Position numbers and translations under genes: made by a program
The notes under the pieces: model-generated
What the model was told of the DNA's origin: nothing
Database searches by the model: none
The model's input: only the letters and a program-made list of their open reading frames with translations
In this document: positions 10,755 through 61,138 of the stretch, one piece after another
How positions within the stretch are numbered: the first letter of the stretch is position 1
How the letters are laid out: each line of letters starts with the position of its first letter
Virus record (IMG/VR): IMGVR_UViG_3300045988_178671
Coordinates: 1 to 63,082 of that record
Strand: one strand, 5' to 3'
Source of the DNA: a virus
Length of the DNA stretch: 63,082 nucleotides

Positions 10755-10760
10755 TATTAG

Positions 10761-13508: not shown

Positions 13509-13511
13509 TTC

Positions 13512-25795: not shown

Positions 25796-26938
25796 ATGTC
25801 AGACAAAATTCACTTATATGAAATTCGGCAAGGTGTTTTTCGGTGCCAAAAGCAGATTAACAGTATTCGTTTTGTGAAAGATTTTTACGGAACCGAAAAA
25901 CAATGCGAAACACAAGCACGTGCGTGGTGGGAAGATATCAAATCCCGCTATCGCGATAACTGGGATGGAACAAAAACATGGGACTTTTTCAAAACAAAAT
26001 GGGAGGAATGGGCCCGCTTGGAAACAAAATCCAAAGTTCCTATGGCAGAACGTACGATTACAGAATACAAGTGGGCATTTAAACAGGCTGAACGCCTTAT
26101 TTCCCCGATCCGTTATCTTGCCGATATTACACTTCAAAAACTACGTCTTGCCCGTGGAGTATTGGAAGATGAAGCGCGTGCAAAGGATGCGGACAATTAT
26201 GGCCCCAATAAGTTCGTTGGTTGTATGCGTGCCAGCCTGATGTGGGCTATGGAGCGTGGGTATATGAAAGATATTATATTAGATAACTTCCGCGCACTCC
26301 CAGTAGCAGAGGTAAAAGTAAAAACCCAAAGTATCCGAGAAATAGAACTACTCTTAAAATACGGTAGTACCAAAGAACGTGTGGTTGTTCTATTGGGCTT
26401 TGACTGCGGTTGCCGGCCCGAAGAAATCGCCAATATGCTTATTAACAACTTAGATTTGGAAAACGGTTTTGCCGATATTACACCACACGAAGAAGACAGC
26501 AAGCACGGCATTACGCGGTGGCATCCAAAGGTTTGGAAACGCCGTCAAATCCGACTTACGCCACGCCTTATTGCAGAAATTAAAAAACTGGGCAGCGAGG
26601 GCCCCTACTTGATTTCAAACCAATATGGCGAACCATATACGCAACTGGGATTCCCGCAGTTTTATGGCAAATTTGTAAAAAAAGTAAATGCCTGCATTCG
26701 GGATAAAGAAAAAGACCCCATAAAAATTACGGCTAGTTGCAAAACCTTGCGCAAAAATTACAGCACAAGCCGGCAAGGGCAAGGAGCCACCATTGAAGAA
26801 ACGGGTAAGAGTATGGGCCACGCGGACAGCAAAGTTACGCGCAAAAACTATACGGACACATTAACCCCCGAAATGCGCGCACAGGAGCGGGAACGACTTA
26901 AAAAAATGGATCAGTTTATCGTACCGTTGGAGTATTAA
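25796..26938 (+). CDS. int: Tyrosine recombinase / integrase A, 380 aa
   Basis: C-terminal MGHADSKVTRKNYTD (the HxxR...Y region); Arm-type N-terminal domain. Confidence 0.8.
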   Translation: MSDKIHLYEIRQGVFRCQKQINSIRFVKDFYGTEKQCETQARAWWEDIKSRYRDNWDGTKTWDFFKTKWEEWARLETKSKVPMAERTITEYKWAFKQAERLISPIRYLADITLQKLRLARGVLEDEARAKDADNYGPNKFVGCMRASLMWAMERGYMKDIILDNFRALPVAEVKVKTQSIREIELLLKYGSTKERVVVLLGFDCGCRPEEIANMLINNLDLENGFADITPHEEDSKHGITRWHPKVWKRRQIRLTPRLIAEIKKLGSEGPYLISNQYGEPYTQLGFPQFYGKFVKKVNACIRDKEKDPIKITASCKTLRKNYSTSRQGQGATIEETGKSMGHADSKVTRKNYTDTLTPEMRAQERERLKKMDQFIVPLEY

Positions 26939-27184: not shown

Positions 27185-28358
27185 ATTTTTGCACCATTTG
27201 GGGCAGTTTGAGAACAAACGATTTCATCCGCTCTAAATGCTCCAAACGGGCCTTTGCATCCGCCTTGCGCAGGGTTTCTTTGTCAATATAATGGCGCTCG
27301 GTGGTCTTTTTGTCCGCATGCGAAACGTATTTTGATACGTCTATTTCCGCCGCGCCGGCCTGTATCATATACGACGTATGCGTTTTACGCAAAGACTTAT
27401 ACGTGCACACTATCTTATGGCCGTTTTCTTCTTTACGCAAAATCATTTCGTTGACGTTTTTTAAGTTTTTGTTCCAATGCTTGGAAAAAGTGCTGTCATC
27501 CAGCGGGTGGCCGTTTTCGTTGGTAAGTAGATATGTTTTGGCATGCAAGGATAAAATGTCCGCCACGGTGTCCGGCGTGAAATAAACCGGGCGTTCTTTG
27601 TCTCTTTTGACCGTCCACGCGCGGATGCCGCGGTTTTTGTTTTCCGCGTTATGGCTAATCCACGCAATGCCTGTGGCGGGGTCCAACTTTTCTATTAAAA
27701 AGTTGTACATTTCTTCCGGGCGCAAGTTCCCCTCAAAGCCCATACGAACGGCCACGCGCATTTGAGGACTGCTGTACTTTAAGAGCATAGCAAGTTCCCA
27801 CGTGGTAAGTACGCGCACCACAGGCGCGCTGGTCTTTTTGGGCGAATTGCGTAGTGGGGTAAGGTCTATATACGGGATATACCCCTCCACCATTCCCCAG
27901 TCAAAGGCGCGCAAAAGGCAACCCATATCTTTATTGACCCCGTAATTATCGTCCCCGTTGCGTTGGGCTTCGGCCGCCTTGGTACGGCGGAACAAGGCTA
28001 TATCTTCAAAGGTTAAATCCCGCACATAGTGTGGCTTGGCAATTTTTTCAAAGTGGGCCAAAGCGTAGGAGTATTCGGCAATGGTGCGGGTGCGCCAAGT
28101 GGGCTTGCCTGTTTTGGCGTCCTTTTCGGTACGCAGGGCTTTAAGAAAGGCACTCGTAAAAAAGGCCCACGTTTTAGAGCCGTCCACTCGGCGGGACTTG
28201 TTTTCCCGTTCCAATTTTTCTACCCAAATTTTATAGTCGTGTTCCCGTTGCTCCCGGTTGCCAGTCAAAAAAATCTCGTACCGCCTGCCATTTATTTGCT
28301 TGCGGTATCTTTGGCCTAGACGGCCGGGGCGTTTGAAACTGGAAATTTTCTCAGCCAT
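27183..28358 (-). CDS. int: Tyrosine recombinase / integrase B, 391 aa; paralogous to integrase A
   Basis: C-terminal VSHADKKTTERHYIDKE; the RKQINGRRYEIF Arm-type N-terminus parallels integrase A. Confidence 0.8.
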   Translation of the reverse strand: MAEKISSFKRPGRLGQRYRKQINGRRYEIFLTGNREQREHDYKIWVEKLERENKSRRVDGSKTWAFFTSAFLKALRTEKDAKTGKPTWRTRTIAEYSYALAHFEKIAKPHYVRDLTFEDIALFRRTKAAEAQRNGDDNYGVNKDMGCLLRAFDWGMVEGYIPYIDLTPLRNSPKKTSAPVVRVLTTWELAMLLKYSSPQMRVAVRMGFEGNLRPEEMYNFLIEKLDPATGIAWISHNAENKNRGIRAWTVKRDKERPVYFTPDTVADILSLHAKTYLLTNENGHPLDDSTFSKHWNKNLKNVNEMILRKEENGHKIVCTYKSLRKTHTSYMIQAGAAEIDVSKYVSHADKKTTERHYIDKETLRKADAKARLEHLERMKSFVLKLPQMVQK

Positions 28359-47600: not shown

Positions 47601-47703
47601 GGGGCAATATGAGCAAATGCCCAGCGTGATAGTGGAGCAGCGGGACCCGCTCCCGTTAATGATAACGGCTATTGTGCCGTGTGTAACGGTGGGTAATTTA
47701 TGA
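44635..47703 (+). CDS. Tail tubular protein B (T7 gp12-like), 1022 aa
   Basis: Large beta-rich protein following the gp11-like gene; coupled overlap. Confidence 0.5.
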   Translation: MPVHILQPTLNGGVAAPGLWRRVDQQKFSTWLRECVNYYVYPQGGAANRPGTIMLATVKKTPYTYEAPMTLYAWGMSGYEQTQGVYYTESETPQAGCPVYKNDEKTPSLSATSFDLQANPATMTITDGSLTWTVLRQPTWDQERTVQKTAYQTKKARLLPFVFSKTQAYSLELGAGYIRFFNSDGQLLDQHHLVYEVETDLAEADLKDLYYCQSADVMYFARNGKRPKQLERYGHTDWKFSDYVFLYGPMKLANKDDGLKISAVYNQNLAKFYLTCANDVFSAGDVGAWWKLKHRLRAVNFAPQYTTQQNTLSDAMLVSGELTVQTTGTWGGQVELQYSADPKDENSWLPLHTISSIMYHDQAADQDVNSFNANDVVSVPAGLWWIRVKPSVNNGRCYLRLDCEAQEVDIFYKISEFISPIKVAAELVNNTKDLEMYFSTGREYKDCIPVFTSATAPAGTFTSLQADAWHALDGTTDTYAEVPKDGSLGFTYTFPAAVVITSISVLGYGIDEPFIASGVSGDDTQFLTYDDAKAFNIRSEERGKSVCFTAGGQERTNTWRILHINPQVASSITLGINNGKTKDKYLVSFVVRGYDYEAGKEITINATSEWSEGAWSTKNGWPASVCQHGGRLVWGQNDGVQGTRIGDNHSFALSSPLEDSDAVSTTLKDEGVNAINALVSMKSLVAFTAGGVFASNAGVMTPTDAGMPKQSAEGGANVRPAVIGSRVLYALPKRTKLRDSAYDYSTDAFHGDNLCYIAAHLFDNDKILEMAYQQEPDGLLWVLMESGKLLCLTYVHAENVCSWTEMETDGRVESICCIPGQGRDELFLIVNRDGTRYVEKMADRLASKEPAEQYFVDCGRTYRGEPTTAVSGLDYLEGKEVSILADGQVMPRQTVQNGQITLSAPASVVHVGLPYTARLRTLSGDINTDSGSVLAKKKRITGALVCVVDSRNARVGTDPDHMETWNPEKPLAYNTGKELVSEDIRFTFAGQYEQMPSVIVEQRDPLPLMITAIVPCVTVGNL

Positions 47704-48158
47704 TAACCATTGAAAGGACCAAAGACGAACACATCCGATTTGTTTCGGCGCGCCTGCGTAAGGGCGACAAATTGGAACTGGAACACGCCGGAAGAAAGGA
47801 TTATCAAGCGGCGGTAAAAGAAAGCGTGGCCGTAAGCCCGTTTGCTTTTACGGCCCTGCACAATGGGGTGCCTATGTGTTTGTTTGGCCTACGGCCAGAC
47901 GGGTTGCTGTCCCGCCGGGCACGGGTGTGGCTGCTAGGCACAGGCGAAATAAATACCACCAAAAAAGACTTTGTGATAACCTGCCGCGCGGTGCTGAACG
48001 GCCTCTTGGATATTTATCCGGAACTATACAACGCAGTAGATGACGGGTATCCGCAAGCCAAGCGGCTGCTTCAATTTTTGGGGGCTCGGTTTACCCGGAA
48101 GGTATTTGCCAAAACCGGGCAGCCCTTTATTTTGTTTGAAATACGGAGGAATCAATAA
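47700..48158 (+). CDS. Internal virion protein (gp13-like), 152 aa
   Basis: T7-like gene order and size. Confidence 0.4.
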   Translation: MITIERTKDEHIRFVSARLRKGDKLELEHAGRKDYQAAVKESVAVSPFAFTALHNGVPMCLFGLRPDGLLSRRARVWLLGTGEINTTKKDFVITCRAVLNGLLDIYPELYNAVDDGYPQAKRLLQFLGARFTRKVFAKTGQPFILFEIRRNQ

Positions 48159-48766
48159 TGTGTACTGCCAACAACGCTGCCGCCAAAGGCGCGGCCGCTA
48201 CGCAAACGAAAACACCGTTTTATAAGAACCCACAATTTTGGCGCGGTGCCGGGACGGGCCTTGCCATAGGCAGCGGGATTATGGATGCCTCGTCCGCCCT
48301 TTCCAGCGGGCGTGCTGCGGCCGCCAAATACAATGCCCAGGCGTTTGCCGAAGAAAGCCAAGCGGCTTTGGACGAACAGACGGCCGCACGGCAGACTACG
48401 TACGATTTACAGCAGGCGGCCGATCAGGTAAAACAGGTCCGCCGGGCAGGGCGCCAAACCTACGGCAAGCAACTGGCCGCCGCCGTAGCCAGCGGAATGG
48501 ATTTGGCCAGCGGGTCTTTTGAAGATACCGTAAATGACAGTTTGCGCGCGGAGCAGGAAGATATGGAGTATCTTAAACGCACCGTATCTACCCGCGCCAG
48601 CGAACGGGCCTTGCAGGCACAATTAAACACCCTTACGGCCAAAGGGCAAGCCGAGCAAATGCGCATTGCCGGACGGGCCGCCAAAAAGGCTGCACGGCTT
48701 AATAGTTATTCTTCGCTGTTATCTACCGCGGCCAGCGTGGCCGGGATGTGGGGAGGCGCTAAATGA
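48158..48766 (+). CDS. Internal virion protein A (gp14-like), 202 aa
   Basis: T7-like gene order and size; Ala/Gln-rich helical. Confidence 0.4.
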   Translation: MCTANNAAAKGAAATQTKTPFYKNPQFWRGAGTGLAIGSGIMDASSALSSGRAAAAKYNAQAFAEESQAALDEQTAARQTTYDLQQAADQVKQVRRAGRQTYGKQLAAAVASGMDLASGSFEDTVNDSLRAEQEDMEYLKRTVSTRASERALQAQLNTLTAKGQAEQMRIAGRAAKKAARLNSYSSLLSTAASVAGMWGGAK

Positions 48767-50577
48767 AAGTACCGCAATATGAAAACCGGGTAGCCCCCGG
48801 ATCCATTACCGCCGCACGGCCGCAAGCGGTTACACCTGTGGCCGGCGCCTTTGGCGAAAGCGTGGCCGCCGCCGGCAAAAATGTGGCCCAAGGAATAGAC
48901 CGTATGGCCGCCGCTATGGACAACGCGGCCAACCGCTTGGCCGTCCGCCAGCGCAACCTGCGCACGACGGCCGCCATTTTGAACTGGCGCAAGGACAATG
49001 ACGAACTGTTAAACGGCAAACTGGGCGACGACGGAAAACGTATTGACGGCGGGCTACTCAGCAAGGAATACGGCCAAGCCGACACCATTGCCGCCGATTA
49101 CCAAACCAAGGGGCAAGAACTAATGAAAAAATACTTGGATATGGCCCCCACCGATGATGAACGCGAAGAACTGGCGTTGGAGTTTCAAAAGGACTTTCAA
49201 AATAATTTTGACACCGTGGCACGCTACCAGTTAAAACAACAGCGCGCCCAAGGCGACTTGCTGACGGATGCCTACAAAAAACAGCAGGCGGGCCTGGCCG
49301 GAGCGATCACCACCGTCGCAGGCATGCGCGCCAATTTGGACGATACGTATAAGAAGTCCAATGAAAACGCCACGGCCGCCGGCGTGCCGCCGCAAGCGCA
49401 GGCTTTGCTGCGCTTTGATATTGCGCGCGACAACGTATCGGCCGCGGTGAAAGGGAGCATTATCAACGGTAACCTGTCCGCCGCCCGCCAAGTATTGGAC
49501 GGAGTAAAGGACGATTTATTGCCCGACGATTACAACCAGTTAAATAACTTTATTAAAAAGGCCGAACAAACCCAAGTACAGGGCACCAAAAGCGAACGCT
49601 TGGGCCCGCTTTATGAGCGCGCCTTGCTTATGGCCGAAACCGAGCCCGAAAAATTGCAAGAAGAAATTGTCGGGCTGATGCGCAACCCCGCCAGTGCGCT
49701 TACCCAATACAGCCAAAACTTTGGCCCGTTGGATGCCAAGGGGCTTTTGGAATACGGCAAATGGGTGCAAAACAATTTGTTAGACAGCCCGGACACGCGT
49801 TCCGGGCGAATAAAACAGGCCAACTGGCAGGCGCACGAGAGCGGCTTTAACGCTTTTGAGTGGAAAATAAAAAGCGGAAAGGACCCAAAAATTGGCAACA
49901 AGGATATGAACAACCCGCAAACCGTGCTGGCCGCCATTGGTGCGCTTTCGGGCCAAATTGCCCACCACGACTTTGACGGCGAGGACCTAAAAAAGGCCGA
50001 AAAACAGTTGTCCCAACTGCGTCAGGCGCTGGGCACTATGGATATAAAAGCCAATGATACGGCTTTGGGCGAAATTGTACGGCAGGCTAATTTGCTTTCC
50101 GACGGAGCAGAAAAACGTGCGGAAACCGGCACTACCACCCGCCTGGCTCCGCTGGAAGTGGAAGGAATTTCCTTACTGAACGACCGCGAAGTAAAGAACT
50201 ATGAAAATTACCCCGTGGGCGGATTTTTAACCCCGGAAGAAAAGAGCCTTATTATAGAGCAAGCCGCCCAATTTTTACAAGCGGCCAATGTCAATTTGCT
50301 GGCCGAGGATACCAACACCCGCACCCAAGCGGTGGCCGCCGTGCAAACCGTGGCGCGCGATTATGTACGCAGTAAATTTGCCATAAACCGGGACGACGTA
50401 ATGGACGTGCAGGTGGGTGAGAATACCTTTAAGTCTTACGGTATTAAGCCTAATCCCCGTTTGGGTGCTGACGTAAAAAGCCGCTTGGACGGCTACCGCT
50501 ACCAAGAAGAAAACGGCGCCGCGTATTTGATTAAACGCGATAAAAACAACAAAGAATTACACAGGCAACTTTTATGA
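48763..50577 (+). CDS. Internal virion protein B (gp15-like), 604 aa
   Basis: T7-like gene order; helical. Confidence 0.4.
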   Translation: MKVPQYENRVAPGSITAARPQAVTPVAGAFGESVAAAGKNVAQGIDRMAAAMDNAANRLAVRQRNLRTTAAILNWRKDNDELLNGKLGDDGKRIDGGLLSKEYGQADTIAADYQTKGQELMKKYLDMAPTDDEREELALEFQKDFQNNFDTVARYQLKQQRAQGDLLTDAYKKQQAGLAGAITTVAGMRANLDDTYKKSNENATAAGVPPQAQALLRFDIARDNVSAAVKGSIINGNLSAARQVLDGVKDDLLPDDYNQLNNFIKKAEQTQVQGTKSERLGPLYERALLMAETEPEKLQEEIVGLMRNPASALTQYSQNFGPLDAKGLLEYGKWVQNNLLDSPDTRSGRIKQANWQAHESGFNAFEWKIKSGKDPKIGNKDMNNPQTVLAAIGALSGQIAHHDFDGEDLKKAEKQLSQLRQALGTMDIKANDTALGEIVRQANLLSDGAEKRAETGTTTRLAPLEVEGISLLNDREVKNYENYPVGGFLTPEEKSLIIEQAAQFLQAANVNLLAEDTNTRTQAVAAVQTVARDYVRSKFAINRDDVMDVQVGENTFKSYGIKPNPRLGADVKSRLDGYRYQEENGAAYLIKRDKNNKELHRQLL

Positions 50578-53500
50578 ACGAACAAGAACAAACCGCTAAA
50601 ACCCCTTTAACTGCCCCCGCACCGCTTGCCACTTTGGAGCCGGAGCGCAGAAGCGTATATTTGCCCAAGGAAAACTTAATTGTAAATACCTCCTTGCGCC
50701 GCGCGCAGGACTTACAATTTGCCATTGAGACCGAACTGCGCAACAAAAATAAAGACAATTATTTTGCCTACCAGCGTTTGGACGAAAGCATCCCCGATAC
50801 GACCCACCGCTGGTGGAAAACCCCTTACCGCGCGGTGGCCAATGCGGGTGTGTCTATGTGGCAGTCGGGCGAGCGCCTTATGGCGGGCGGCATCGGCGCC
50901 ATACTGGACGAATACGAATACAGCAAGGCTGCGCGCGCGACCAGCCGCAAATACGCCCAGCAGGCCGAGGAATTAAACCAAGGAGCCTTGGCCGTGCCCG
51001 GGGCGCAAACCCTGGATAAACGAAAAAAGGACCTCTACGATGCGTATTTGGCGGAACTGCACCAAATCCGTCAAGATTATGAGCACAACCGCAAATTGGG
51101 GCGGGATGCCTTGCTGGTGATGAGCAAAAATAACGCCAAATTCCGCGAACTAGCCGGCATTGAAAAGAACGAAAAGGACGGCTTTCTGTACGATTTGTTT
51201 GGCGCCGGCGGCAGCCTTATGGCGGCCATTGGCCTTACGGTGCTGACAGGCAGCCCCGCGGCGGCCGCTATTGCCTTTGGCGCTACGGCCGGGCAGCAGG
51301 ACTATGAAGAGGCCTTGCAAAACGGCGTGGCCCCGGACCGGGCGTTACTCTCTGGCATTGCCGGCGGTGCGTTTGAGGGCGGCATTGAACTACTGGGTAT
51401 GGAAATGCTGTTTAAGAGTTTAACCAAAACGGGCGTATTGGGGCGTATTGCCGCCTCGGCTTTGAGTGAGGGCAGTGAAGAGGCCGCCCAGCAAACCGCT
51501 GAGGAAATTATTATGCAGCACTTTGGCGGCCGCCAGCAGGACCTGGCCGACACCTTACAGGGTATTGGGTATTCGTTTGTTATTGGCTCTTTAACGGCTG
51601 TGCCTGTGGCTACGTTGGTAAACCGCGCGAGCAAAAAACTGCAAGACAAGGGCATTAAAAAAGAAACGGCCGACAAAATGGCCCTGAATATGGCCAAGGC
51701 AACGGCTACGCCGGAAAATAACGCGCAAGTGCATAAGATTTTATCCAACGCCACGAGCCCGCTTGTTTACCCCAATGGAGATGTGGAACAAGGGGCCCAG
51801 GCGTTTAAGGAGTCTGTTGATAAGGCACGCAACCCGGACAGGGAAACCACCCGCAAAATGTATGAGGTGGCGGAACGCACGGAGCAAAAAGCCTTGGCCG
51901 CCGGCTACGATACGGACAGCGCGGCACTGCTGGGCAACCTGGAACAAAGCCGCGCCAATAGCGTGCTGAACGTGGCGGGCCTGAAACCGGGCGAGTTTGA
52001 AATGACGGAAGTGGATTTTGAAAACGCCCCCGTGCAAGACAATACCGAAGCCGTGCAGTCCTCCGTGGCCGCCCAGCGCGAACAATGGAAGCGCGAATAC
52101 GAGGAACAACAAGCGCGCAAAGCGCAAGAGCAAGCGACCGCCAATGAGGAATTTGACCGCAAACTGGCGGAAGCCAACTTACAACCAGAAGATATTTTGT
52201 TTCAATCTGCCGCTATGTATAAGAACAAGGCTAATTCTTTGGTAGAGTTCAAAGATTTTGCCGTAAACAACAAAGGAAACAAACAAGAAGATAATAAAAG
52301 TTTCTACCGTTTTACAAACAAAGACGGGGTACAAATTGATGTACCGTTTGAGTGGGCTTTACACATTAAAGAAAAACACCATTTAACCGACCAACAACTG
52401 GATGTAGCGGAAAAGGAACTAAACAACGCAGAGTATGCCGTTCTTATGCCGGATGTCGGGGAATATCAAGGCAAGCAGGTAAAAATAAAAGTAAATACTT
52501 CTTTGGGCAAAATGGGTGCAGTTTTAGAAATTTTGCCCAATGGGCGCGTTTTCTTGGATACTGCTTTTTTTGACAGCGACGCCCATATAGATAATTGGGC
52601 AAAAGAAAACCACCCCAATGCGCCTAGCAAAAAGCCGGTGTTCATTGGCGGTGGTACTATTAGTATAGCGGATATTATGCGAGAAATCAAGGGGAATAAG
52701 AGCGGAACCTTTGACAGCGCTAACCCAAATATCTATCTGCAAGAGGATATTACCGCGGTAGATTTAACGGCTCCGTTTGCTGCCATTGCCAAATTGCCGG
52801 CAGACCAGCGCGCCCAACAAGTGGAATCTTTCTTGAATGCCCTTATCGGTCCTGCTATGGATACGGCTACCCCACCCTTGCAAATACAAATTACGGCAGA
52901 TAACAAGGTCCATATTAAAAACTCTAACGTAAAACTAAAAAATGGAAAATTAAAACGCCACCAAACCGCCCTGACCACATTGGAAAAAATTGTTAATGTG
53001 GCCCAAAAAACGGATAGAAAGGGCGCGGTGGACGTGTCCCATAATACCAGTAAAAAAACATTGGCTCATAAGGCTAATGTAGAAGAATATGTGTATTTCC
53101 AAGCCCCGGTAAAAATTGGAGAAGATACTTTTTTGGTGGAATTGGCTACGGAACGCGTAAAAGGGCAGGATAAAAATTTGTTAGACCTGTATAATGTACA
53201 CGTAAAAAGGAACCCTGCCACCGCGCATTTAAGCACTTACGGGCAGGGTTCCAGTACAGATAGGATAACTAATAACGAAGAATTTGTCAAGGCCCAAGAA
53301 AGCGGAAAGACAAACATCTATCTGAAAGAGGACATAGAAAACGTCCGCCCGAGCACTGCGGATATCTTCGGACCGGATGCCCAAACGGCAGAGCGGTTTA
53401 AGGAAAATGTAAAAACTGTATTGTCTGATGAAAACATATCCAACAAGCAACAGGTGGAAATGGGACAACTTCCGCCACTATACACAGAACTTGGCCTACC

Positions 53501-56500
53501 CCAACAGGAATTGAAAACCAATAAACTTGCCCTGCGTAAAGCCCTCGGGCTTTTAACTCCGCAGGAATTAGCAGAACATAAGGATTGGCATAATCATAAT
53601 GTGCCACAAGAAACGATAGATAATTTACCCGCGCTACTTTCTGACCCGGTGGCCGTGTTACGTTCCAACACTAAAAACGGAAGTTTTGTGGCGGTATTAG
53701 ATAGTGAAGTGCAGGGAAAGCCTGTGGTGGCTATTGTGTCGCCCAACCTTAGAAAAGGAGGATATACTTTTATCCCTTCCGTTTATGAAAGAAATAATTA
53801 CGAAACTTTTTTGAAAACGACAGCAGAAAAAGGAAATGTATTGTATTGGGATAAAAACAGAATGTCATTACCAGGGGCGCTTACGCGAGCCGCCATCATA
53901 GGTAACGACATTCTTATAGATAATATAACAACAAAAGAGGATGTTGTCAAGGCCCAAGAAAGCGGAAAAACAAATAATCCGTCTGAACTGTTGCAGGAAA
54001 ATTTATTTAATATCCAGCAAAACCTGTTTGATAAACAGCAGAGTTTGTTTGATACGCAGGTCAATGTGGAGGAACGGACCGCACTCACGCAAGAGGACAG
54101 CGAACTCAAAGAGACGGCAGACGGGCTTTTTAGCGAAGAAGAATTAAAACAGGACTTGCCGCCCTTTACCCCCACGGGCAAGCCCGAGCGCATAGAGGAT
54201 TTTGGCGAAAAGATTTTAGGGGCCCGCAAGGATATGTGGGGCAAGTACCGCGCCGCTATGACGAGCGAACTGCCCGCCGACGTGCGCAGTATTACGCTAT
54301 CCCAATACTTCCCGGAACCAAATTACGAAGCGGCCATAGCCAAGGGCATTACAACCGAACAACTGGCTATTGTAAAGGCTTTGCGCGACAGCCTGCCCGT
54401 TAAGCCGCAACGCCCCGCCCGCGCGGCCCAATGGGTAGAGGGCTTAAAGGCGGCGCGCGAAACGGCCAACCAAGTGCTGCAACATTCGGAAATGGTAAAC
54501 CTGTTCAAAGAAACAGACCAAACGGATGCTATCCACAACCGCGTGGCTTTTTACCTAGAACTGGGCTATCCGGCATTTACCAAGGCCAAGGAATACTCCT
54601 TGCGCCCGGGCAACTTTTTAATGTTTAACGGACAACGCTTTAATGAGCCCCAAAAGATATATTTACTGGAACGCGGATATAAACGGGTGGCCGGTTCGCA
54701 AAACCGGGCCGAAATGGTGGCCCTGGCCCGCAAAATGCTGGCGCAGTCGGCCGCGCCCGCCAAAGCACCTACCAAATTGGACGTCTATCAAAGGCGCGAC
54801 ACGGGCGAAATTATCATTGGCAAGAAAATTGCCACAGGCAAATTTATTGACTTAAAGGGCGGCTTTGAACGTGTAAAGGATGCGTTTGATTTTTTGACTA
54901 AAAACCAAGCGCATTTAGAAGCCCTTTTGGCCGAAAAGCGCAAAATTTACCCCGTCCGCCGCGACACCAACGCGCCGCGCGTGGGCAAGGAATACCGCCC
55001 GGCCGGAACGGTTATCACGCCGGAGCGGTTTAGCCAAGAGTTTGGCTTCCGCGGCGTACAGTTTGGCAACTGGGTGGAACAGGAACGCCGCGCGCAAGAC
55101 TTAAATAATGCTTATGATGCGCTGTTGGATATGGCAGATATTATCCGCATACCGGCCCGGGCGGTGTCTTTGGACGGCACACTGGGGCTGGCCTTTGGCG
55201 CACGCGGCAAAGCCAATGAACTGGCCCATTACGAACGCGACCAAGTGGTTATCAACTTAAATAAAAAGAACGGTGCGGGCAGTTTGGGCCACGAATGGTG
55301 GCACGCCTTGGATAACTATTTTAGCCGACAGGACGGGCAAAACGAAATGACCTCGGAAAACCCCAAGGCTAACAGCGCCTTGCGCCCGGAAATGAAAGAG
55401 GCTTACCAAGGTGTATTAAAAGCCATTACGGACACGTTTTACAGCCGTAGTGTAAACTTGGATAAATTGCGTTCAAAGCCCTATTGGAGTACCCGCACGG
55501 AAATGACCGCCCGCGCCTTTGAAAGTTATTTGATTTATAAGGCCAAGCAAGAGGGACACTCCAACGATTACTTGGCCAACATTGTAAACCCGGAGGCCTA
55601 TTTGGGCGGGAAAGAACGTTTCCCGTATCCGACCGATACGGAAATGCCCGCTATTGCGGCCGCGTTTGACCGCTTTTTTAACACGTTAAAAACGGCCGAA
55701 ACCCCGCGCGGCTATACGCTTTACGCGGAAAGCGAGGGCGACACGTCGTTTGATTTTGGCCAGAATGTGGCCCAGCCGGACTTTTTGGGGAAGGTGGTTT
55801 TTGCCCAAGACAGCAACCGCGCTATTATTGTAGCCAGCACTTCTGCCAATAAATCTACCGCCATTCACGAGTATTTCCATATTTGGGAACGCGACCTCTA
55901 CCGGGCGGAAAAAGCCAGCACAGACCCTGCGTTTTTGCAGTTGATGCAGAACCTGCGGCAAATCCACGCGGACAGCGCGCCCTTTGTAATGGAGTATTTG
56001 GGCAAAACCAAACTGCTAAACGATACCGCCCGCGCCCGCGTTTTACAAACCATTAAAGAGCGCGGCGGGAACGAATACATCAAACGCCTGGCGTTTAGTG
56101 ATGTGTTAGACGAAAACGACACAACCGCCCAATTTGTACGCCGCGGGTTTAGGGAAAACTTTGCCACCAAGGCCGAAAAATACTTCCAAAACGGCAAAGC
56201 CCCTAACGCGACCTACAAAAACCTGTTTGAAAAATTTGCCGCCTGGCTGCGCGAGATTTACGGCTCCTTAACGGGTGTGGAACTTTCGCCCGAGGTGCAG
56301 GAGTTCTTTGATAAACTCTTGGCCAAAGAGGCCCGCCGCGTGGACAGTAAACTGTTTACGGGTAAGGTGGATAAATTAAAACAACAAATTAACAACATCC
56401 GCCAAGGCAGCCCGCGGGGCGATTTTACATTGGAACAAATTAAAGACCTCGTCAATACATTAGATGCGCCCGCGCCCAAACTGCCCACGAATCATTTGCT

Positions 56501-59500
56501 TAAAGATTTGCGTCGCTATGGGGCCGAATATGCCAACGCCGGACAAATTGATAAAGAAGCCTATAAAAATGCCCGCGTATTTAATAAAAAGGGCGGCATT
56601 GGCGATGACACGGCCCGGTGGCTGGCCGACCACGGATATCTAACCGAGGCCGAAGGGCGGACCTATGAGGAGCAGGACCGTATCAACCAGCAGGCCTACG
56701 ACCTGATAGACCGCGCGTTAAACGGCGAAGTTATTTACCCCGTGGGCACGGAAAAACAGGTGCAGGACTTTGAAAACTACAAGGCCCTTGTGAATACCGT
56801 GCGCGACGTGTGGGGCGACCCGCGCGAAGCCAAAAAGACCTTAAAGGCTATTTTAGACCTGGAAGAAAAGGGCTACCGCGTGGTGGAAAAGCGCGACCTG
56901 GCGGATTTTTCCCTGCGGCTTGGGGAACTAAACCGCTTGGCCGAAAAGTTGGACCCCAAGGGCGCTACTACACAAGCCAAAGAACAGGCCTCCGCCGCCA
57001 CCTTGGATGCGGCCCGCAAGATTAAGCGCCACTTAATTACCGAACTCAACAAGCGGCAAATTGAGGGCAAAGACGGTTTAATTAAACAGTTGGAAAACGC
57101 CAAGACCTTTGAGGAAATACAAACCGCGGCCGCGGGTGCGCTGGACTTTTTGGAGGACGCCTACGACCGCACGAACGAGGGGCAGGAGGAACGCCGGCGC
57201 ACCGATTTGCCCAATACAAATTGGGACAACGTGCGCGCCGAACTGCTGCGCGCTTATACCGAATCTATCGGACACGTGGACGAAAAGATACAGCAGGCCT
57301 GGCGTGTGCAGACTATGGCCGCCAGCGGGCAACTGAAACTTTACGAAAACCTGACGGACGAAGAAGTGGCCCGCCGGCGAACCGCCGCCGAAAAGGTGTT
57401 AAAAGAAGCGGAGCCAAAATTGGAAGCCGCCCTAATGCGGGCTATGGAAAGCGTACTGCGCAAACAAGGCGGGTTGGAAAGCGACCAAGTGCGCCGCCTG
57501 GTGGCCAAGTACGCGCGCAACGCTAGCCGCCAACGCTCGCTTTGGAAAAATGAAATAGACAAACTGATAGACAAAGCACGCGAAATTCAAGAGGACAATT
57601 ATAAGCAGTATATGAACCGCAAAATCCAAGCCCTTTTGAATATGAACTTGTTTGACCGCCGGGGCAATTTCCGCCGAGCGATGACGGACCCGGCCACAAT
57701 GACCGCCTTGGAAGAATTACGGCGCGTAGCACATTTGGGGCCGCAAAGCGCCGCCGACGAATTGCAAAACCGTATGCTTGTAGATAAACCCACCAGCCCG
57801 ACGGATAGAATTATTAACGAAATGCTTTCCATACAGGCTTATGCGCGCAAGGACGTGTCCTGCCAACTGTTTAAGCAGGCTTACGAGGATATCCACGCCC
57901 TGCGCAAGGCCGGCAGAGAGGCTAAAAGTTTGGAAAAAATGATTAAAGATTACCGCACCGAACAGGACAAGAGCGAAGTGTTGGGCGCTATCAAAAAAAA
58001 TAAAAAGGCCGGCAAGTTAAAGCAGATGTACGCCAGTTGGATAGCCAACTGGGAAAGTTTCTTGGATATGGTAACGGATAAAGAAACCAAGGAAAAATAC
58101 TCTATGCTCAACCTGGAAGCCGATACCATTACCTACACTTGGCAGCGCAGAACGGAAATTATGGACGGCGTAAAGCGCATTTACGGGCTGGGCAGCAACC
58201 GCGAGGTGCAAAACAAAATGAACGCCTTGCGCAACGAAAAATATACGTTTACCAATTATGCCCTGGTGGATAAAAACACCAACCCCGGAGCCATAAAGCG
58301 AACGGGCGAAGCCTTCCCCGAGGAACTGAACAAACTGCAAATTATTACGGCCTATATCTATGCCAAGAACGATAACTTAATGGACCGCTTATTAAACCAG
58401 TACGGGGGCCAATTAAACGATATGTTTGCCCTGCTAGATAAGCAGGACAGGGCCTTGGGGGATTTTTTACAAAAAGAGGCGAAAAAAACCTACGCGCAAA
58501 TTAACAGCGTGTTTGTAAAAGAACGCGGCTACGATTTGCCCCGCGTGGAAAATTATTTCCCCAGCAAAACGGAGCGGGTGGAAAGTGAACTGGACTTTTT
58601 AAACGCGGCCGCCGCTATGAGCAAAAACCCGTCTTTTACCAAAATGCGCGTAAGCAGCGCGTTTGTGCAAATGAAGTTGGAAAACCCGTTTGGCATTTTG
58701 TTCACCCACATTGACCGTGCGGCCGATTACACCTTTAAGGCGGAAAAGTTAAACCAAATCCGCCGCGTGTTCAAAAGCCCGGTGTTAAAACCCGCGATTA
58801 TTGAGCAGGTGGGCGAGGACTGCTACAAGCGTATGCTGGAACTCATTGACCAGTTTAGCGTAACCAAGCCGCGGCTTAATTACGAAATGGACAAATTGGG
58901 CGACTGGCTGACCAACAACTATGTAAAGGGCGCGATTGCCTTAAAGCCAACGATTGCCGTAAAGCAGTTAATCTCGGCCATAAACTACGCGGAAAATATG
59001 CCGGCCACCCAATGGGTAAGCGGATTTACCAAGGCCATTATGCACCCCAAAGAAACGGTGGCCTTTATGATGGCCGGAGACCCGTATTTGAAAGCGCGGT
59101 ATGAAAGCGGCTCTATGAACGAGGCTTTGGCCCGCGCCACCGCAGATGCCAACGCCCTTACGGCCCGGGGTAAATTCCTGCGCTTTACCGACCTATTAAC
59201 AATTAATACGCGCTTAGGCGACGTGGGCGCTATTATGTTTGGCGGCAAGCCGTATGTGGACTATTTAATGCAGACCAAGGGAATGAGTAAAAAAGAAGCG
59301 TTTGCCGAGTTTAGAAAGTCCACCCTGAGAAGCCAACAGGCCAATACGAGAAGCAGTTTATCTACCTTGCAGGCGCGGGATATGAACTTTATCGTGCGCG
59401 GACTGTTTGCCTTTAAGAATACGCCCGCCCAGTACGCCCGCAAAATTGCCGACGCAATTTATGAATACCAACGTGGGGAAATTTCCCGCGCGCAACTGGC

Positions 59501-59993
59501 CAAGGTGGTGGCTATTTACGGGTTGTTTAACTCGTGGATGTACTCCGCCCTGACAACGCTGGGGCTTTTGGCCTGGTATTATGACGATGATGATGCGGAC
59601 GAAATACTGGCGGACGAACTGTTTTTTAGCCCGTTTGTGCAAATGGCCGGCTGTTTGCCCGTGCTGGATATGGCCGTGGGGACGGCCGCCCAAGTGGCCA
59701 AAGCAAAGATGTTTGACCATACAGTGCGTATGGAACGCCCGGAACTGCCGGTAGTAAGCGAACTGTTCAAAATGGGACAAATGGCCGTAAAGGACGATTT
59801 AGCCGCCGAAGATGTATTGAATATGCTAGTGGAAGGCGGGCAATTAATCGGCGGGCTTCCTACCAAATATGCCAAGGGCTTTGCCACGGGCACGGCAGAT
59901 ATTGCCAGCGGAGAAAACCCGATGCGCGGATTTCTACAAATGCTGGGCTACACCGAAAACCGCGCACAAATTGCCACCAATACCAAAAAATAA
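50574..59993 (+). CDS. Giant internal virion / ejection protein (gp16-like position), 3139 aa. Carries two HExxH zincin-like motifs and Gly-zipper membrane segments; polyvalent-protein-like.
   Basis: HEWWH at 55290-55304 and HEYFH at 55866-55880; hydrophobic GxxxG segments near the N- and C-termini; AT-rich internal block 52200-54100. Confidence 0.55.
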   Translation: MNEQEQTAKTPLTAPAPLATLEPERRSVYLPKENLIVNTSLRRAQDLQFAIETELRNKNKDNYFAYQRLDESIPDTTHRWWKTPYRAVANAGVSMWQSGERLMAGGIGAILDEYEYSKAARATSRKYAQQAEELNQGALAVPGAQTLDKRKKDLYDAYLAELHQIRQDYEHNRKLGRDALLVMSKNNAKFRELAGIEKNEKDGFLYDLFGAGGSLMAAIGLTVLTGSPAAAAIAFGATAGQQDYEEALQNGVAPDRALLSGIAGGAFEGGIELLGMEMLFKSLTKTGVLGRIAASALSEGSEEAAQQTAEEIIMQHFGGRQQDLADTLQGIGYSFVIGSLTAVPVATLVNRASKKLQDKGIKKETADKMALNMAKATATPENNAQVHKILSNATSPLVYPNGDVEQGAQAFKESVDKARNPDRETTRKMYEVAERTEQKALAAGYDTDSAALLGNLEQSRANSVLNVAGLKPGEFEMTEVDFENAPVQDNTEAVQSSVAAQREQWKREYEEQQARKAQEQATANEEFDRKLAEANLQPEDILFQSAAMYKNKANSLVEFKDFAVNNKGNKQEDNKSFYRFTNKDGVQIDVPFEWALHIKEKHHLTDQQLDVAEKELNNAEYAVLMPDVGEYQGKQVKIKVNTSLGKMGAVLEILPNGRVFLDTAFFDSDAHIDNWAKENHPNAPSKKPVFIGGGTISIADIMREIKGNKSGTFDSANPNIYLQEDITAVDLTAPFAAIAKLPADQRAQQVESFLNALIGPAMDTATPPLQIQITADNKVHIKNSNVKLKNGKLKRHQTALTTLEKIVNVAQKTDRKGAVDVSHNTSKKTLAHKANVEEYVYFQAPVKIGEDTFLVELATERVKGQDKNLLDLYNVHVKRNPATAHLSTYGQGSSTDRITNNEEFVKAQESGKTNIYLKEDIENVRPSTADIFGPDAQTAERFKENVKTVLSDENISNKQQVEMGQLPPLYTELGLPQQELKTNKLALRKALGLLTPQELAEHKDWHNHNVPQETIDNLPALLSDPVAVLRSNTKNGSFVAVLDSEVQGKPVVAIVSPNLRKGGYTFIPSVYERNNYETFLKTTAEKGNVLYWDKNRMSLPGALTRAAIIGNDILIDNITTKEDVVKAQESGKTNNPSELLQENLFNIQQNLFDKQQSLFDTQVNVEERTALTQEDSELKETADGLFSEEELKQDLPPFTPTGKPERIEDFGEKILGARKDMWGKYRAAMTSELPADVRSITLSQYFPEPNYEAAIAKGITTEQLAIVKALRDSLPVKPQRPARAAQWVEGLKAARETANQVLQHSEMVNLFKETDQTDAIHNRVAFYLELGYPAFTKAKEYSLRPGNFLMFNGQRFNEPQKIYLLERGYKRVAGSQNRAEMVALARKMLAQSAAPAKAPTKLDVYQRRDTGEIIIGKKIATGKFIDLKGGFERVKDAFDFLTKNQAHLEALLAEKRKIYPVRRDTNAPRVGKEYRPAGTVITPERFSQEFGFRGVQFGNWVEQERRAQDLNNAYDALLDMADIIRIPARAVSLDGTLGLAFGARGKANELAHYERDQVVINLNKKNGAGSLGHEWWHALDNYFSRQDGQNEMTSENPKANSALRPEMKEAYQGVLKAITDTFYSRSVNLDKLRSKPYWSTRTEMTARAFESYLIYKAKQEGHSNDYLANIVNPEAYLGGKERFPYPTDTEMPAIAAAFDRFFNTLKTAETPRGYTLYAESEGDTSFDFGQNVAQPDFLGKVVFAQDSNRAIIVASTSANKSTAIHEYFHIWERDLYRAEKASTDPAFLQLMQNLRQIHADSAPFVMEYLGKTKLLNDTARARVLQTIKERGGNEYIKRLAFSDVLDENDTTAQFVRRGFRENFATKAEKYFQNGKAPNATYKNLFEKFAAWLREIYGSLTGVELSPEVQEFFDKLLAKEARRVDSKLFTGKVDKLKQQINNIRQGSPRGDFTLEQIKDLVNTLDAPAPKLPTNHLLKDLRRYGAEYANAGQIDKEAYKNARVFNKKGGIGDDTARWLADHGYLTEAEGRTYEEQDRINQQAYDLIDRALNGEVIYPVGTEKQVQDFENYKALVNTVRDVWGDPREAKKTLKAILDLEEKGYRVVEKRDLADFSLRLGELNRLAEKLDPKGATTQAKEQASAATLDAARKIKRHLITELNKRQIEGKDGLIKQLENAKTFEEIQTAAAGALDFLEDAYDRTNEGQEERRRTDLPNTNWDNVRAELLRAYTESIGHVDEKIQQAWRVQTMAASGQLKLYENLTDEEVARRRTAAEKVLKEAEPKLEAALMRAMESVLRKQGGLESDQVRRLVAKYARNASRQRSLWKNEIDKLIDKAREIQEDNYKQYMNRKIQALLNMNLFDRRGNFRRAMTDPATMTALEELRRVAHLGPQSAADELQNRMLVDKPTSPTDRIINEMLSIQAYARKDVSCQLFKQAYEDIHALRKAGREAKSLEKMIKDYRTEQDKSEVLGAIKKNKKAGKLKQMYASWIANWESFLDMVTDKETKEKYSMLNLEADTITYTWQRRTEIMDGVKRIYGLGSNREVQNKMNALRNEKYTFTNYALVDKNTNPGAIKRTGEAFPEELNKLQIITAYIYAKNDNLMDRLLNQYGGQLNDMFALLDKQDRALGDFLQKEAKKTYAQINSVFVKERGYDLPRVENYFPSKTERVESELDFLNAAAAMSKNPSFTKMRVSSAFVQMKLENPFGILFTHIDRAADYTFKAEKLNQIRRVFKSPVLKPAIIEQVGEDCYKRMLELIDQFSVTKPRLNYEMDKLGDWLTNNYVKGAIALKPTIAVKQLISAINYAENMPATQWVSGFTKAIMHPKETVAFMMAGDPYLKARYESGSMNEALARATADANALTARGKFLRFTDLLTINTRLGDVGAIMFGGKPYVDYLMQTKGMSKKEAFAEFRKSTLRSQQANTRSSLSTLQARDMNFIVRGLFAFKNTPAQYARKIADAIYEYQRGEISRAQLAKVVAIYGLFNSWMYSALTTLGLLAWYYDDDDADEILADELFFSPFVQMAGCLPVLDMAVGTAAQVAKAKMFDHTVRMERPELPVVSELFKMGQMAVKDDLAAEDVLNMLVEGGQLIGGLPTKYAKGFATGTADIASGENPMRGFLQMLGYTENRAQIATNTKK

Positions 59994-60004
59994 GGAGCAA
60001 GGAA

Positions 60005-61138
60005 ATGACCGTATCTAATACCACTACAAAAATAACTTACGTTGGGGACGGAAAAAACCGCACATTTGGGATTCCTTTCCCCATTCTATCCGCCGCGGAT
60101 CTGCGGGTGGTGATAACCGACAGCGAGGGCGTGGAAACCAGTGCAGACGGGCAGTTTACCGTTAATATGGCCCAAAAGCAACTGACGTACCCAACGGTAG
60201 GGAGCCGTGTGCCTACGCTGTCCAAAGACTGCAAAATTACCATTTTGCGCCAAACGCCGCTTACGCAAGACATAGACCTGCAAAGCGGCCACGCATTGGA
60301 CGCCGAAGAACTGGAACGGGGGTTTGACAAACTAACGTATGTATTGCAGGAACTAAGCGAAAAGATGTCCCGCGCGCTGACCTATAAGGTGAGTGAAACA
60401 AACGAACATACAGCCGAGGAGTATTTGAGCAAAATTGCCGCTTCTCTGCAAGCGGCCGCCGGCGCAGCCCAGCAGGCGGCAACCGCGGCTACGCAAGCCA
60501 AAAATGCCGCGCAGGAGGTTTCTTCGTCCGTAAATGAACACAATGCCAGCCAAACAGCACATAATGATTTGCGCAACCTTATTGCCAAGAAGCAAAACAT
60601 CTTAACAGCCGGACCGGGCGTAGATATTACGGACGATATAATTTCCATAACGGGCGCCGGTGGCGGAAACGGTGGAACGGGCATAACGGTAGATAGCACC
60701 CTGGACAGCGAGAGCACCAACCCAGTGCAAAACAAAGTGATTAAAGCCGCCCTGGACGGCAAACAAAAAACCTTAATTCCTGGGCCAAATGTGAGTATTG
60801 CGGCCGACGGAACAATTAATTTTACGGGAGACACGGGAAGCGGAAGCAGCACTGGACTAACCGGGCTAGTGGTATATAACGAGCGAGGTTATAGCAAGGC
60901 AGCCCGAACAGGCAACTTCCGCACCAATATCGGCACCCGGGAATATAAGTTTATCACGTTGGAACTGTGCAACGCAGACGGCACTGTATGGTGCACTCCT
61001 CTGCACTCCGCGGTTGGATACGGGAACAGAAGCGGAAACTTTGCCACCGTTTACTATGCAATTTCTGCCAGCGAATTTGAGGGCAATACGATTTTGGCTG
61101 ACGACACTTACGGGATTAAAATTACCCTCTGGTACTAG
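60005..61138 (+). CDS. Tail fibre protein with a T7 gp17-like N-terminal anchor domain, 377 aa
   Basis: N-terminal TKITYVGDGKNRTFGIPFPIL parallels the gp17 segment LTYQLDGSNRDFNIPFEYL; C-terminal beta domain. Confidence 0.55.
   Translation: MTVSNTTTKITYVGDGKNRTFGIPFPILSAADLRVVITDSEGVETSADGQFTVNMAQKQLTYPTVGSRVPTLSKDCKITILRQTPLTQDIDLQSGHALDAEELERGFDKLTYVLQELSEKMSRALTYKVSETNEHTAEEYLSKIAASLQAAAGAAQQAATAATQAKNAAQEVSSSVNEHNASQTAHNDLRNLIAKKQNILTAGPGVDITDDIISITGAGGGNGGTGITVDSTLDSESTNPVQNKVIKAALDGKQKTLIPGPNVSIAADGTINFTGDTGSGSSTGLTGLVVYNERGYSKAARTGNFRTNIGTREYKFITLELCNADGTVWCTPLHSAVGYGNRSGNFATVYYAISASEFEGNTILADDTYGIKITLWY

Follow-up and report, generated by a model that had tools for sequence, protein, structure and literature searches.

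What kind of protein is encoded by a single reading frame of 3,139 codons lying among the structural genes of a virus, and why does the GC content of that gene fall sharply over part of its length? The gene occupies positions 50574 to 59993 of a stretch of 63,082 nucleotides (the whole of which is called the window here), IMG/VR virus record IMGVR_UViG_3300045988_178671. We propose, at a probability of roughly 0.75, that the product is the largest internal-virion (ejection) protein of a podovirus prophage of the BPP-1/T7 type, and a polyvalent protein in which cargo is carried on a conserved frame. The frame consists of an N-terminal domain with membrane helices, a metallopeptidase-like domain (zincin 2, or zn2) and an alpha-helical C-terminal region of ~1,240 aa, and the cargo lies between the N-terminal domain and zn2. 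Judged by domain family, the cargo would be made up of variable effector cassettes, in this allele PBECR-like, LPD3-like and a MuF-C predicted ribonuclease (RNase), together with a fixed unit of LPD5, a CLCA_X-type zincin and LPD1. Proteins of this type are already known; what is unusually clear here is the swapping, as cassettes with a foreign codon composition have been gained, lost and exchanged between phages at the repeats that encode their junctions. The value added by this locus lies in that turnover, in a junction motif and in a C-terminal domain that is absent from Pfam and PHROGs.

The gene and its neighbours are as follows.

47700-50577, + strand: upstream internal-virion genes of 152 aa (gp13-like), 202 aa (gp14/Bbp12-like) and 604 aa (gp15/Bbp11 position), with matches to PHROG 308 and 418
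50574-59993, + strand: the whole open reading frame (ORF), 3,139 aa plus stop, a single ATG-started frame; probable polyvalent internal-virion protein at the IVP-D position
60005-61138, + strand: tail-fibre gene, with PHROG tail and tail-fibre N-terminal matches

In PHROG scans the order of genes runs from TerL (38157) through portal (39868), scaffold/'protease' (41835), major capsid protein (42618), tail tubular A (43973), tail tubular B (44635), two 'internal virion proteins' (47700 and 48158) and a 604-aa ORF without a PHROG match (48763) to the giant and the tail fibre (60005). The same order is found in BPP-1, and it corroborates the placing of the gene, in a first-pass annotation made from the window alone, at the gp16 position of a T7-like module; the link by sequence goes through BPP-1 Bbp10. 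The 152-aa ORF gives a weak but end-to-end alignment with T7 gp13 (blastp, E 1e-3), the 202-aa ORF matches BPP-1 Bbp12 (blastp, E 3e-4), and related loci carry Pfam Head-tail_con, Phage_Bbp19, GP7 and Bbp16, with T7_gp14 matched weakly. Also as first described, the giant is over twice the size of gp16 (3,139 against 1,318 aa, a factor of 2.4). Gene order and homology to Bbp10 together suggest that it belongs to IVP-D, since Bbp10 was itself assigned to that group; Hardies et al. (2016, PMC4819975) count Bbp10, VT2-Sakai orf71 and the N4 gp50 C-terminal domain among an extended IVP-D (T7 gp16) family.

Pfam places MuF_C at aa 1001-1097 (8e-20), LPD5 at aa 1351-1488 (1e-28) and LPD1 at aa 1629-1708 (2e-21) of the giant, with LPD3 below threshold at aa 770-860. 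The protein thus combines several unrelated catalytic and LPD domains, hallmarks of polyvalent proteins among them, and its gene lies between internal-virion and tail-fibre genes, so that the polyvalent architecture first suggested holds. Rather than coiled coil and transglycosylase content alone, with HExxH motifs in other folds, the searches returned these hallmark domains, and the second HExxH and its downstream Glu proved invariant in 24 relatives.

It is very improbable that the giant is absent from the virion and is instead a cytoplasmic multi-domain toxin or anti-defence protein that merely happens to lie among structural genes. The N- and C-terminal domains lack a characterised function, which would suit such a protein, but the gene order strictly matches those of BPP-1 Bbp10 and T7 gp16, the homologous LPD5 giant of phage phi24B was detected in virions, the C-terminal domain always terminates giant proteins of uncultured tailed phages, and the giant has been co-transferred with parts of the flanking internal-virion and fibre genes. 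For an ejection protein, gene order and the examples of phi24B gp47, N4 gp50 and T7 gp16 suggest that a few copies would be packed in the capsid and would leave through the tail ahead of the DNA. Its terminal hydrophobic and helical parts may then engage the inner membrane as the cytoplasmic end of an ejection channel, whilst the cargo, going by its domain families, would reach the cytoplasm and, within minutes of the start of infection, act on RNA and proteins of the host. Internal virion proteins do host domains bound for the cytoplasm (PMC4819975), and delivery into the host along with the DNA is proposed here by analogy with phi24B gp47 and N4 gp50.

Cassettes of the low-GC block are gained, lost and exchanged

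The drop in GC content reported in the first-pass annotation is as sharp as described: between ~52,200 and 54,100 the values are 0.39-0.45, against 0.50-0.60 on both flanks. It is steepest at third codon positions (~0.2), where GC content (GC3) is 0.39-0.43 in the block compared with 0.61-0.64 across the remainder of the gene and the structural genes around it; the corresponding figures for first and second positions (GC1 and GC2) are 0.49-0.54 and 0.31-0.35 in the block, against 0.51-0.61 and 0.36-0.42 elsewhere. The block is a series of three cassettes of ~170-220 aa (aa 545-712, 725-904 and 920-1124), laid out with their junctions as follows.

52176-52205, + strand: junction J1, NLQPEDILFQ (aa 535-544), where the low GC begins
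52206-52709, + strand: cassette A (aa 545-712), PBECR/MuF-C-like by motif (HIKEKHHLTDQQL ... GEYQGKQVKIKV), GC3 0.42
52710-52745, + strand: cassette tail and junction J2, FDSANPNIYLQE (aa 713-724)
52746-53285, + strand: cassette B (aa 725-904), LPD3-like; its homologue in other alleles is cassette X (hhalign, probability 92%, E 5e-7)
53286-53330, + strand: tail and junction J3, VKAQESGKTNIYLKE (aa 905-919), overlapping the first copy of direct repeat D1 (53255-53314)
53331-53945, + strand: cassette C (aa 920-1124), MuF-C domain, predicted BECR-fold RNase (Pfam MuF_C)
53946-53999, + strand: tail and junction J4, VKAQESGKTNNPSELLQE (aa 1125-1142), with the second copy of D1 (53915-53974)
54000-54173, + strand: Gln/Leu-Phe linker (aa 1143-1200), of normal GC again; the conserved opening of the constant region in relatives

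The block had at first been read as three to four repeated modules of 60-70 aa. A BLAST self-comparison of the block finds no internal repeat, and that reading is therefore rejected. The pattern strings on which it drew do exist, GEYQGKQVKIKV at aa 628 and VQGKPVVAIV at aa 1046, and so does the intragenic repeat encoding VKAQESGKTN, which lies at aa 905 (nt 53286) and aa 1125 (nt 53946), in each case one base before the number first given, within the two copies of D1, a 60-nt direct repeat that is 82% identical between copies 660 nt apart.

Cassette C is the most readily placed of the three. It scores 71-75 bits against MuF_C (curated cutoff 27.6), a PBECR domain and predicted RNase of the BECR fold according to Iyer et al. 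(2017, PMC5512222), and it is 26-30% identical to the MuF-C region of the giant proteins of Shiga toxin (Stx) phages, which supplied the sole match when cassette donors were sought among deposited phages. Cassettes A and C share, by eye only, a K-H-x-[LV] ... [PE]-[VY]-A-V pattern, and their profile comparison is weak (hhalign, probability 17%, E 1.5e-3 over 127 columns). Profile comparison also finds a C-terminal tail common to B and C, and a relative of the giant (P0104) has a full LPD3 match (1e-23). Five cassette types were distinguished by manual and profile comparison, single-linkage clustering having merged them all: A (no family), B (LPD3-like), C (MuF-C), X (LPD3-like, the homologue of B) and R (ART-PolyVal, 1e-23). 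The last two, a further LPD3-like cassette and an ADP-ribosyltransferase, are carried by sister alleles.

Mapping of 120 relatives shows conservation over ~aa 1-540 and from aa 1116/1130 to aa 3139 (the latter at 96-99% identity), with a variable middle. Nine cassette arrangements occur among 115 alleles, the commonest of which, in 63 of the 115, has B alone and a length of 2,742 aa. The closest comparison is with L002, the same phage at 98.7% identity over 22 kb, which parts from the window at nt 52174/52175, at J1. Two pieces are missing from L002, 52175-52754 with cassette A and 53327-53914 with cassette C, and the latter corresponds precisely to one repeat-to-repeat unit of D1. In L004, cassette X stands in the place of C between the same D1 repeats. 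In L001 the block is 95.6% identical at the nucleotide level inside a protein that is otherwise 31-35% identical; L001 is a contig (CAVKWQ010000030.1) of a metagenome-assembled genome, so it may be a chimera, which counts against leaning on this copy. Assembly artefacts are an unlikely source of the differences between alleles, given that independent contigs come from ENA, Logan and NCBI. Exchange also reaches beyond the block. The podophages L003 and L004 differ from this one in gene order and have unrelated DNA, yet they are 93-98% identical to the window over 49430-53326 and 53985-60138. The homology opens inside the upstream 604-aa gene (49430) and closes 133 nt into the tail-fibre gene (60138); therefore the whole giant gene, with the end of the gene upstream and the start of the fibre gene, is a mobile module, and the N-terminal adaptor of the fibre and the end of the gp15-position protein move with the giant.

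Horizontal exchange of the low-GC block is well supported because the shift in GC3, the presence or absence of cassettes in L002, the swap in L004 and the copy in L001 all point the same way, and comparison with related prophages (L002 and L004) thus upholds the suggestion that the AT-rich block was acquired horizontally and is swapped. That the block is not foreign, and owes its composition to amino-acid content or to a mutational or selective bias acting locally on a part of the gene that is ancestral, is an explanation we regard as highly unlikely. Amino-acid composition does contribute, in that GC1 and GC2 are lower too. However, the biggest drop is at third positions, GC3 is low in all five cassette types at three other loci (0.30-0.46 across every type and locus, against 0.55-0.70 in the frame), cassettes are present or absent among genes that are otherwise 98-99% identical, and the step in composition falls at J1 and J4.

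The conserved frame and the two zincins

The remainder of the protein is divided as follows.

50574-52178, + strand: conserved domain at the N-terminus (aa 1-535), whose hydrophobic helices (aa 208-233 and 331-349) are rich in Gly and Ala
54174-55697, + strand: LPD5 - zincin 1 - LPD1 unit (aa 1201-1708), comprising LPD5 (1351-1488), zincin 1 of the CLCA_X type (1469-1707) and LPD1 (1629-1708)
55710-55775, + strand: degenerate junction J5, GYTLYAESEGDTSFDFGQNVAQ (aa 1713-1734), a disordered linker ahead of zn2
55776-56273, + strand: zincin 2 (aa 1735-1900), with S1761, T1762, H1765, E1766, H1769 and E1861
56274-58130, + strand: helical middle region (aa 1901-2519), which keeps an identity of 44-51% as far as distant alleles, without a Pfam match
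58131-59990, + strand: conserved all-alpha C-terminal domain (aa 2520-3139), in which hydrophobic helices at ~aa 2972-3046 flank an acidic DDDD patch

Pfam searches with the N-terminal 542 aa, with aa 1901-2519 and with the C-terminal 620-797 aa returned noise only, and phmmer with the whole protein found no match among PDB sequences. The N-terminal domain is 88-96% identical among close alleles and is found in 37 of 145 diverse representatives. Gly-zipper membrane segments had been proposed for both ends of the protein; hydrophobic helices do occur at both, the third of them near the C-terminus at aa 3017-3035, but the Gly/Ala zipper is clear at the N end only, with 12 small-xxx-small-xxx-small motifs in aa 190-360 versus 2 in aa 2960-3060. 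Matches of the N-terminal profile to Bbp10 and to the N-terminal domain of N4 gp50 vanish under the default HMMER filters, and the weak likeness seen with the filters off is suggestive at most and is not counted as evidence.

The C-terminal domain has no family in Pfam or PHROGs, but it is widespread: the profile of its 620 aa matches 3,321 cluster representatives at E<=1e-3, 842 of them below 1e-30, among 1.84 billion proteins in 50%-identity clusters. The match is invariably at the C-terminus, in proteins of ~1,200-4,700 aa, and a dozen residues are nearly invariant, including R2842, G2882, D2883, Q2922 and R2956. The same profile matches Bbp10 (E 5e-9). An AlphaFold2 model of aa 2520-3139 is almost all helices, with a predicted local distance difference test score (pLDDT) of 76, and resembles the C-termini of many uncultured-phage proteins in BFVD (template modelling score, TM, 0.7-0.77). 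These relatives are named MuF-C, ART-PolyVal, nuclease, 'large polyvalent protein-associated' or 'crystallin', the last of which is also a name given to Bbp10.

Two HExxH motifs had been reported and both are present, at aa 1573 (GSLGHEWWHALD, nt 55290) and at aa 1765 (TAIHEYFHIW, nt 55866), where composition would lead one to expect 0.036. Both are conserved sites of the zincin type, with catalysis predicted from the residues retained. An alignment of 48 sequences over aa 1340-1900 shows H1552, E1643 and E1650 of zincin 1 to be invariant, along with R205, G206 and 24 other columns, and H1573, E1574, H1577 and D1580 to be at least 90% conserved. NCBIfam CLCA_X, a phage and plasmid zincin family with the consensus HExxHxxxD described as the sister of self-cleaving CLCA proteases (PMC3650047), covers aa 1469-1707 end to end (E 2e-40), at a score of 139 bits that is below its curated cutoff of 260. 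Zincin 1 also carries what Iyer et al. (PMC5512222) give as the signature of a widespread phage-type metallopeptidase clade, a His ending strand 2 and an Asp three residues past HExxH. With a conserved HExxH, a further ligand and a zincin fold, zincin 1 is a zincin metallopeptidase in sequence and fold and a predicted enzyme. The CLCA_X match runs through the LPD1 region, and thus LPD1 appears to be the helical half of zincin 1, the half that bears the Glu.

The second site, zn2, keeps its HExxH in 11 of 11 non-redundant family members. Among 24 diverse sequences (23-41% identity) the invariant residues are the S and T, H1765, E1766, H1769, E1861, one Ala and one Gly, the consensus being ADxSTxxHExxH ... 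QEKFAxxFExY, and ST..HExxH is present in 64 of the 145 diverse representatives. The zn2 profile matches BPP-1 Bbp10 at aa 762-927 (hmmsearch, E 1e-39) and the HExxH domain of N4 gp50, C1, with a probability of 70% (hhalign, E 3.9e-5). MtfA, PPEP, lethal factor and CLCA-like proteins are the structural neighbours of the zincins.

Could one or both zincins be entry enzymes, cutting peptidoglycan stems or a periplasmic or membrane protein of the host in place of the gp16 transglycosylase? No lysozyme or transglycosylase domain was found by Pfam, PHROGs or NCBIfam in any of the four internal-virion ORFs, and for the 604-aa ORF (48763-50577) these searches gave no Pfam or PHROG match, NCBIfam hits at noise level only and no muralytic domain. 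The internal proteins of podoviruses usually host a muralytic domain, an endopeptidase in the case of Pf-WMP3 (PMC4819975), and the authors of the phi24B study propose that the gp47 metallopeptidase degrades peptidoglycan (bioRxiv 10.64898/2026.04.10.717836). We nevertheless think an entry role unlikely. In BPP-1 a transglycosylase (in Bbp11) occurs alongside the zn2 of Bbp10, so that zn2 is more than a plain stand-in for one; the structural neighbours just named are protein or peptide endopeptidases and not known murein hydrolases; and HExxH zincins are not known as a usual class of murein peptidase.

The assignment as a polyvalent ejection protein faces several results that weigh against it. 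Direct similarity between the giant and T7 gp16 was sought with phmmer, blastp and hhalign and none was found; the C-terminal profile shows no similarity to the C2 domain of N4 gp50, nor was any detected between the C-terminal region and the C-terminal 840 aa of the Stx-phage giant; and no PDB structure is related to the C-terminal model. Of the cassettes, A has no match in Pfam or NCBIfam, and the LPD3 match of B (E 1.8e-4, 22.1 bits) is under the 27-bit cutoff. Packaging, ejection, membrane insertion, enzyme activity and cleavage are, moreover, all steps that we infer.

Junction peptides and the question of self-processing

Every cassette boundary, in close and distant alleles alike, is marked by a short motif: a pair of hydrophobic or aromatic residues, then Gln and often Glu. 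In this allele the junctions read ILFQ-S (aa 540), IYLQ-E (720), IYLK-E (915), ELLQ-E (1138) and, in degenerate form, TLYA-E (1715); those of relatives include FLLQE, IYYQE, TLWQE, TLFQ and TFYQ. The degenerate position, J5, is TLYQE, TLFQD or TLYEE in relatives, and the linker after TLYAE has a pLDDT below 50 at residues 379-396 of the AlphaFold2 model. Directly past the last cassette junction there is also a triple repeat, NLFNIQ-QNLFDKQ-QSLFDTQ (aa 1143-1165, 54000-54070), with NLFDMQ..LFD in relatives; these repeats could be further junction-like sites.

In 64 diverse representatives, the stretch lying 30-50 aa ahead of the zn2 HExxH contains [LYFI][FYLWNV]Q at about five times the expected frequency, with 25 occurrences in two 10-aa bins against 2.5 expected per bin, and Bbp10 has KFYQ 31 aa upstream of its own. 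A stricter form of the motif occurs once in the 4,611 aa of the phage's other structural proteins. It is possible, at somewhat less than even odds, that zn2, lying directly past the last junction, cuts the junctions in the manner of a polyprotein protease and frees the modules. The suggestion follows an autoprocessing role for metallopeptidases in polyvalent proteins that was proposed by Iyer et al. (PMC5512222); term searches of that paper found no passage on a junction motif. The fuller claim, that the junction peptides are zn2 cleavage sites and the ejection protein a self-processing polyprotein that releases swappable modules in the host, is more doubtful and is drawn from sequence comparison. 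If it holds, the modules would be swappable in the way that cassettes are because every one bears the same junction for cleavage and recombination. The prohead protease was also considered and seems a less likely cutter, the motif being essentially absent from the other structural proteins; the 255-aa ORF carries its 'protease' label by PHROG name only.

It is also possible, at a little under even odds, that the cassettes are never released: the junctions would be flexible linkers or terminal strands that supply homology for recombination, the cargo would stay tethered to a membrane-bound frame, and the zincins would have other substrates. The DNA that encodes the junctions occurs in repeats (one of 60 nt, 82% identical between copies, and a 17-nt core that J2 and J3 share with one mismatch), every observed swap breaks at junction-coding DNA, the virion RNA polymerase of N4 is packaged and ejected unprocessed despite its HExxH domain (according to PMC5512222), and GYTLY is the last strand of the zincin-1 domain in the model. 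Against tethering, the motif is kept at the protein level in alleles that are 33-50% identical and in representatives without DNA identity, which exceeds what recombination homology needs, and its spacing from the protease domain downstream, whose catalytic residues are intact, is fixed.

Release by zn2 has its own difficulties. The motif could be conserved merely through travel with the cassettes or as the last strand of each module, and the Stx-phage giant has the stricter motif once only and far from domain boundaries, so the motif is not general to polyvalent proteins. Should release nevertheless occur, the junctions would give sequence-level support and a testable site for metallopeptidase autoprocessing, and would amount to a cassette system inside a virion protein. 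Such a system would be wider than this family, as, of the more than 3,000 clusters with the C-terminal domain, many have a similar motif ahead of zn2, and so does Bbp10.

Host setting and comparison with known systems

An identical protein in NCBI, 'LPD5 domain-containing protein [Candidatus Avelusimicrobium fimicolum]', is found on 10 contigs, the longest of 735 kb, which makes the element a prophage of a gut bacterium of the Elusimicrobiota. The 24-kb right arm gave zero matches when compared by megablast with 50,697 phage records, and a tRNA scan of the window for an attachment site found no tRNA gene. In the left half of the window, a further phage-like structural module that is unrelated to the first lies on the - strand (9636-14729), with an HK97-type capsid gene (9636-10754), Phage_portal (11457-13508) and Terminase_3 (13515-14729), and two adjoining, convergent tyrosine-integrase genes lie at 25796-26935 (+) and 27186-28358 (-). 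The arrangement suggests two neighbouring prophages or mobile elements. Related prophages carry, downstream of their lysis genes, an Acb2/Tad1-hairpin gene (of the anti-CBASS/anti-Thoeris sponge family) and a BrnT/CopG toxin-antitoxin pair, at 22526-22882 in L002, past the right end of the window, and at ~16.3-16.8, 24.2-24.7 and 24.9-25.4 kb in L001, L003 and L004.

The locus extends giant, effector-carrying ejection proteins such as N4 gp50, Stx-phage gp47 and BPP-1 Bbp10 to the prophages of Elusimicrobiota, a poorly studied gut phylum. Seldom are the insertion, deletion and replacement of effector cassettes at defined junctions recorded in nature as cleanly as in its many near-identical alleles; turnover of this kind is to be expected in an arms race with host defences. 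It also offers pieces that can be named: a widespread C-terminal domain absent from Pfam and PHROGs, and a conserved junction motif beside a conserved protease. A junction motif next to zn2 would make the long-standing idea of autoprocessing in polyvalent proteins directly testable.

Polymorphic toxins, such as CdiA with its VENN motif, Rhs and MuF toxins, provide one parallel, in that variable effectors marked off by a short peptide motif are exchanged between near-identical genes. They differ in having one C-terminal tip, whereas the cassettes here are serial and inside a virion protein, with no immunity genes seen adjoining. With the polyvalent proteins described in PMC5512222, the giant shares MuF-C/PBECR, LPD5, LPD1, LPD3-like and zincin metallopeptidase domains, and ART-PolyVal in sister alleles; the frame of N-terminal domain, zn2 and 620-aa C-terminal domain is not defined in that paper.

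T7 gp16 (1,318 aa) occupies the same place, after the genes at the gp13, gp14 and gp15 positions and before the fibre, and is likewise a large helical protein with membrane-active parts. Unlike gp16, the giant has no N-terminal lytic transglycosylase (no SLT or lysozyme match) and is 2.4 times larger. N4 gp50 (3,500 aa) is a gp16 analogue with a membrane N-terminal domain, cargo, the HExxH domain C1 and a 110-kDa helical C2 without structural relatives (PMC13434306). The two proteins agree in being a giant third ejection protein, in the layout of membrane N-terminal domain, cargo, HExxH and all-alpha C-terminal region, and in the resemblance of zn2 to C1. The cargo of gp50 is, in contrast, an RNA polymerase, where the giant has effector cassettes and a second zincin unit (Pfam, PHROGs and NCBIfam find no RNA polymerase family in it), and gp50 is reported, in PMC5512222, to be packaged unprocessed.

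The Stx-phage giants (phi24B gp47, VT2-Sakai orf71 and Shigella phage 75/02 gp68; 2,793-2,811 aa) share the unit of LPD5, HExxHxxxD zincin and LPD1, at 37% identity over ~515 aa (aa 1205-1718 here), and have a second HExxH ~270 aa downstream, a MuF-C domain and a Gly-rich N-terminal region. Phi24B gp47 (LPD5/LPD1/MuF-C, 2,811 aa) was found in virions by proteomics and is a proposed ejection protein (bioRxiv 10.64898/2026.04.10.717836). The preprint calls its MuF-C domain a metallopeptidase, whilst Iyer et al. (PMC5512222) class it as PBECR, an RNase fold; the metallopeptidase of the LPD5/LPD1 giants is the HExxH region between LPD5 and LPD1. These giants differ in that MuF-C follows the zincins rather than preceding them, and their tail module is of another kind, that of the F116 group (PMC4819975) or GP4-like (bioRxiv 10.64898/2026.04.10.717836).

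The nearest counterpart in setting is Bbp10 of BPP-1 (2,052 aa). It is without the cassette array and without the LPD5-zincin 1-LPD1 unit (no match to a profile of that part), and BPP-1 has a separate transglycosylase, Bbp11, at the gp15 position, a domain that the 604-aa ORF does not show. In return, Bbp10 holds the giant's place in an identical gene order, with a homologous zn2 that is preceded by KFYQ and a homologous C-terminal region.

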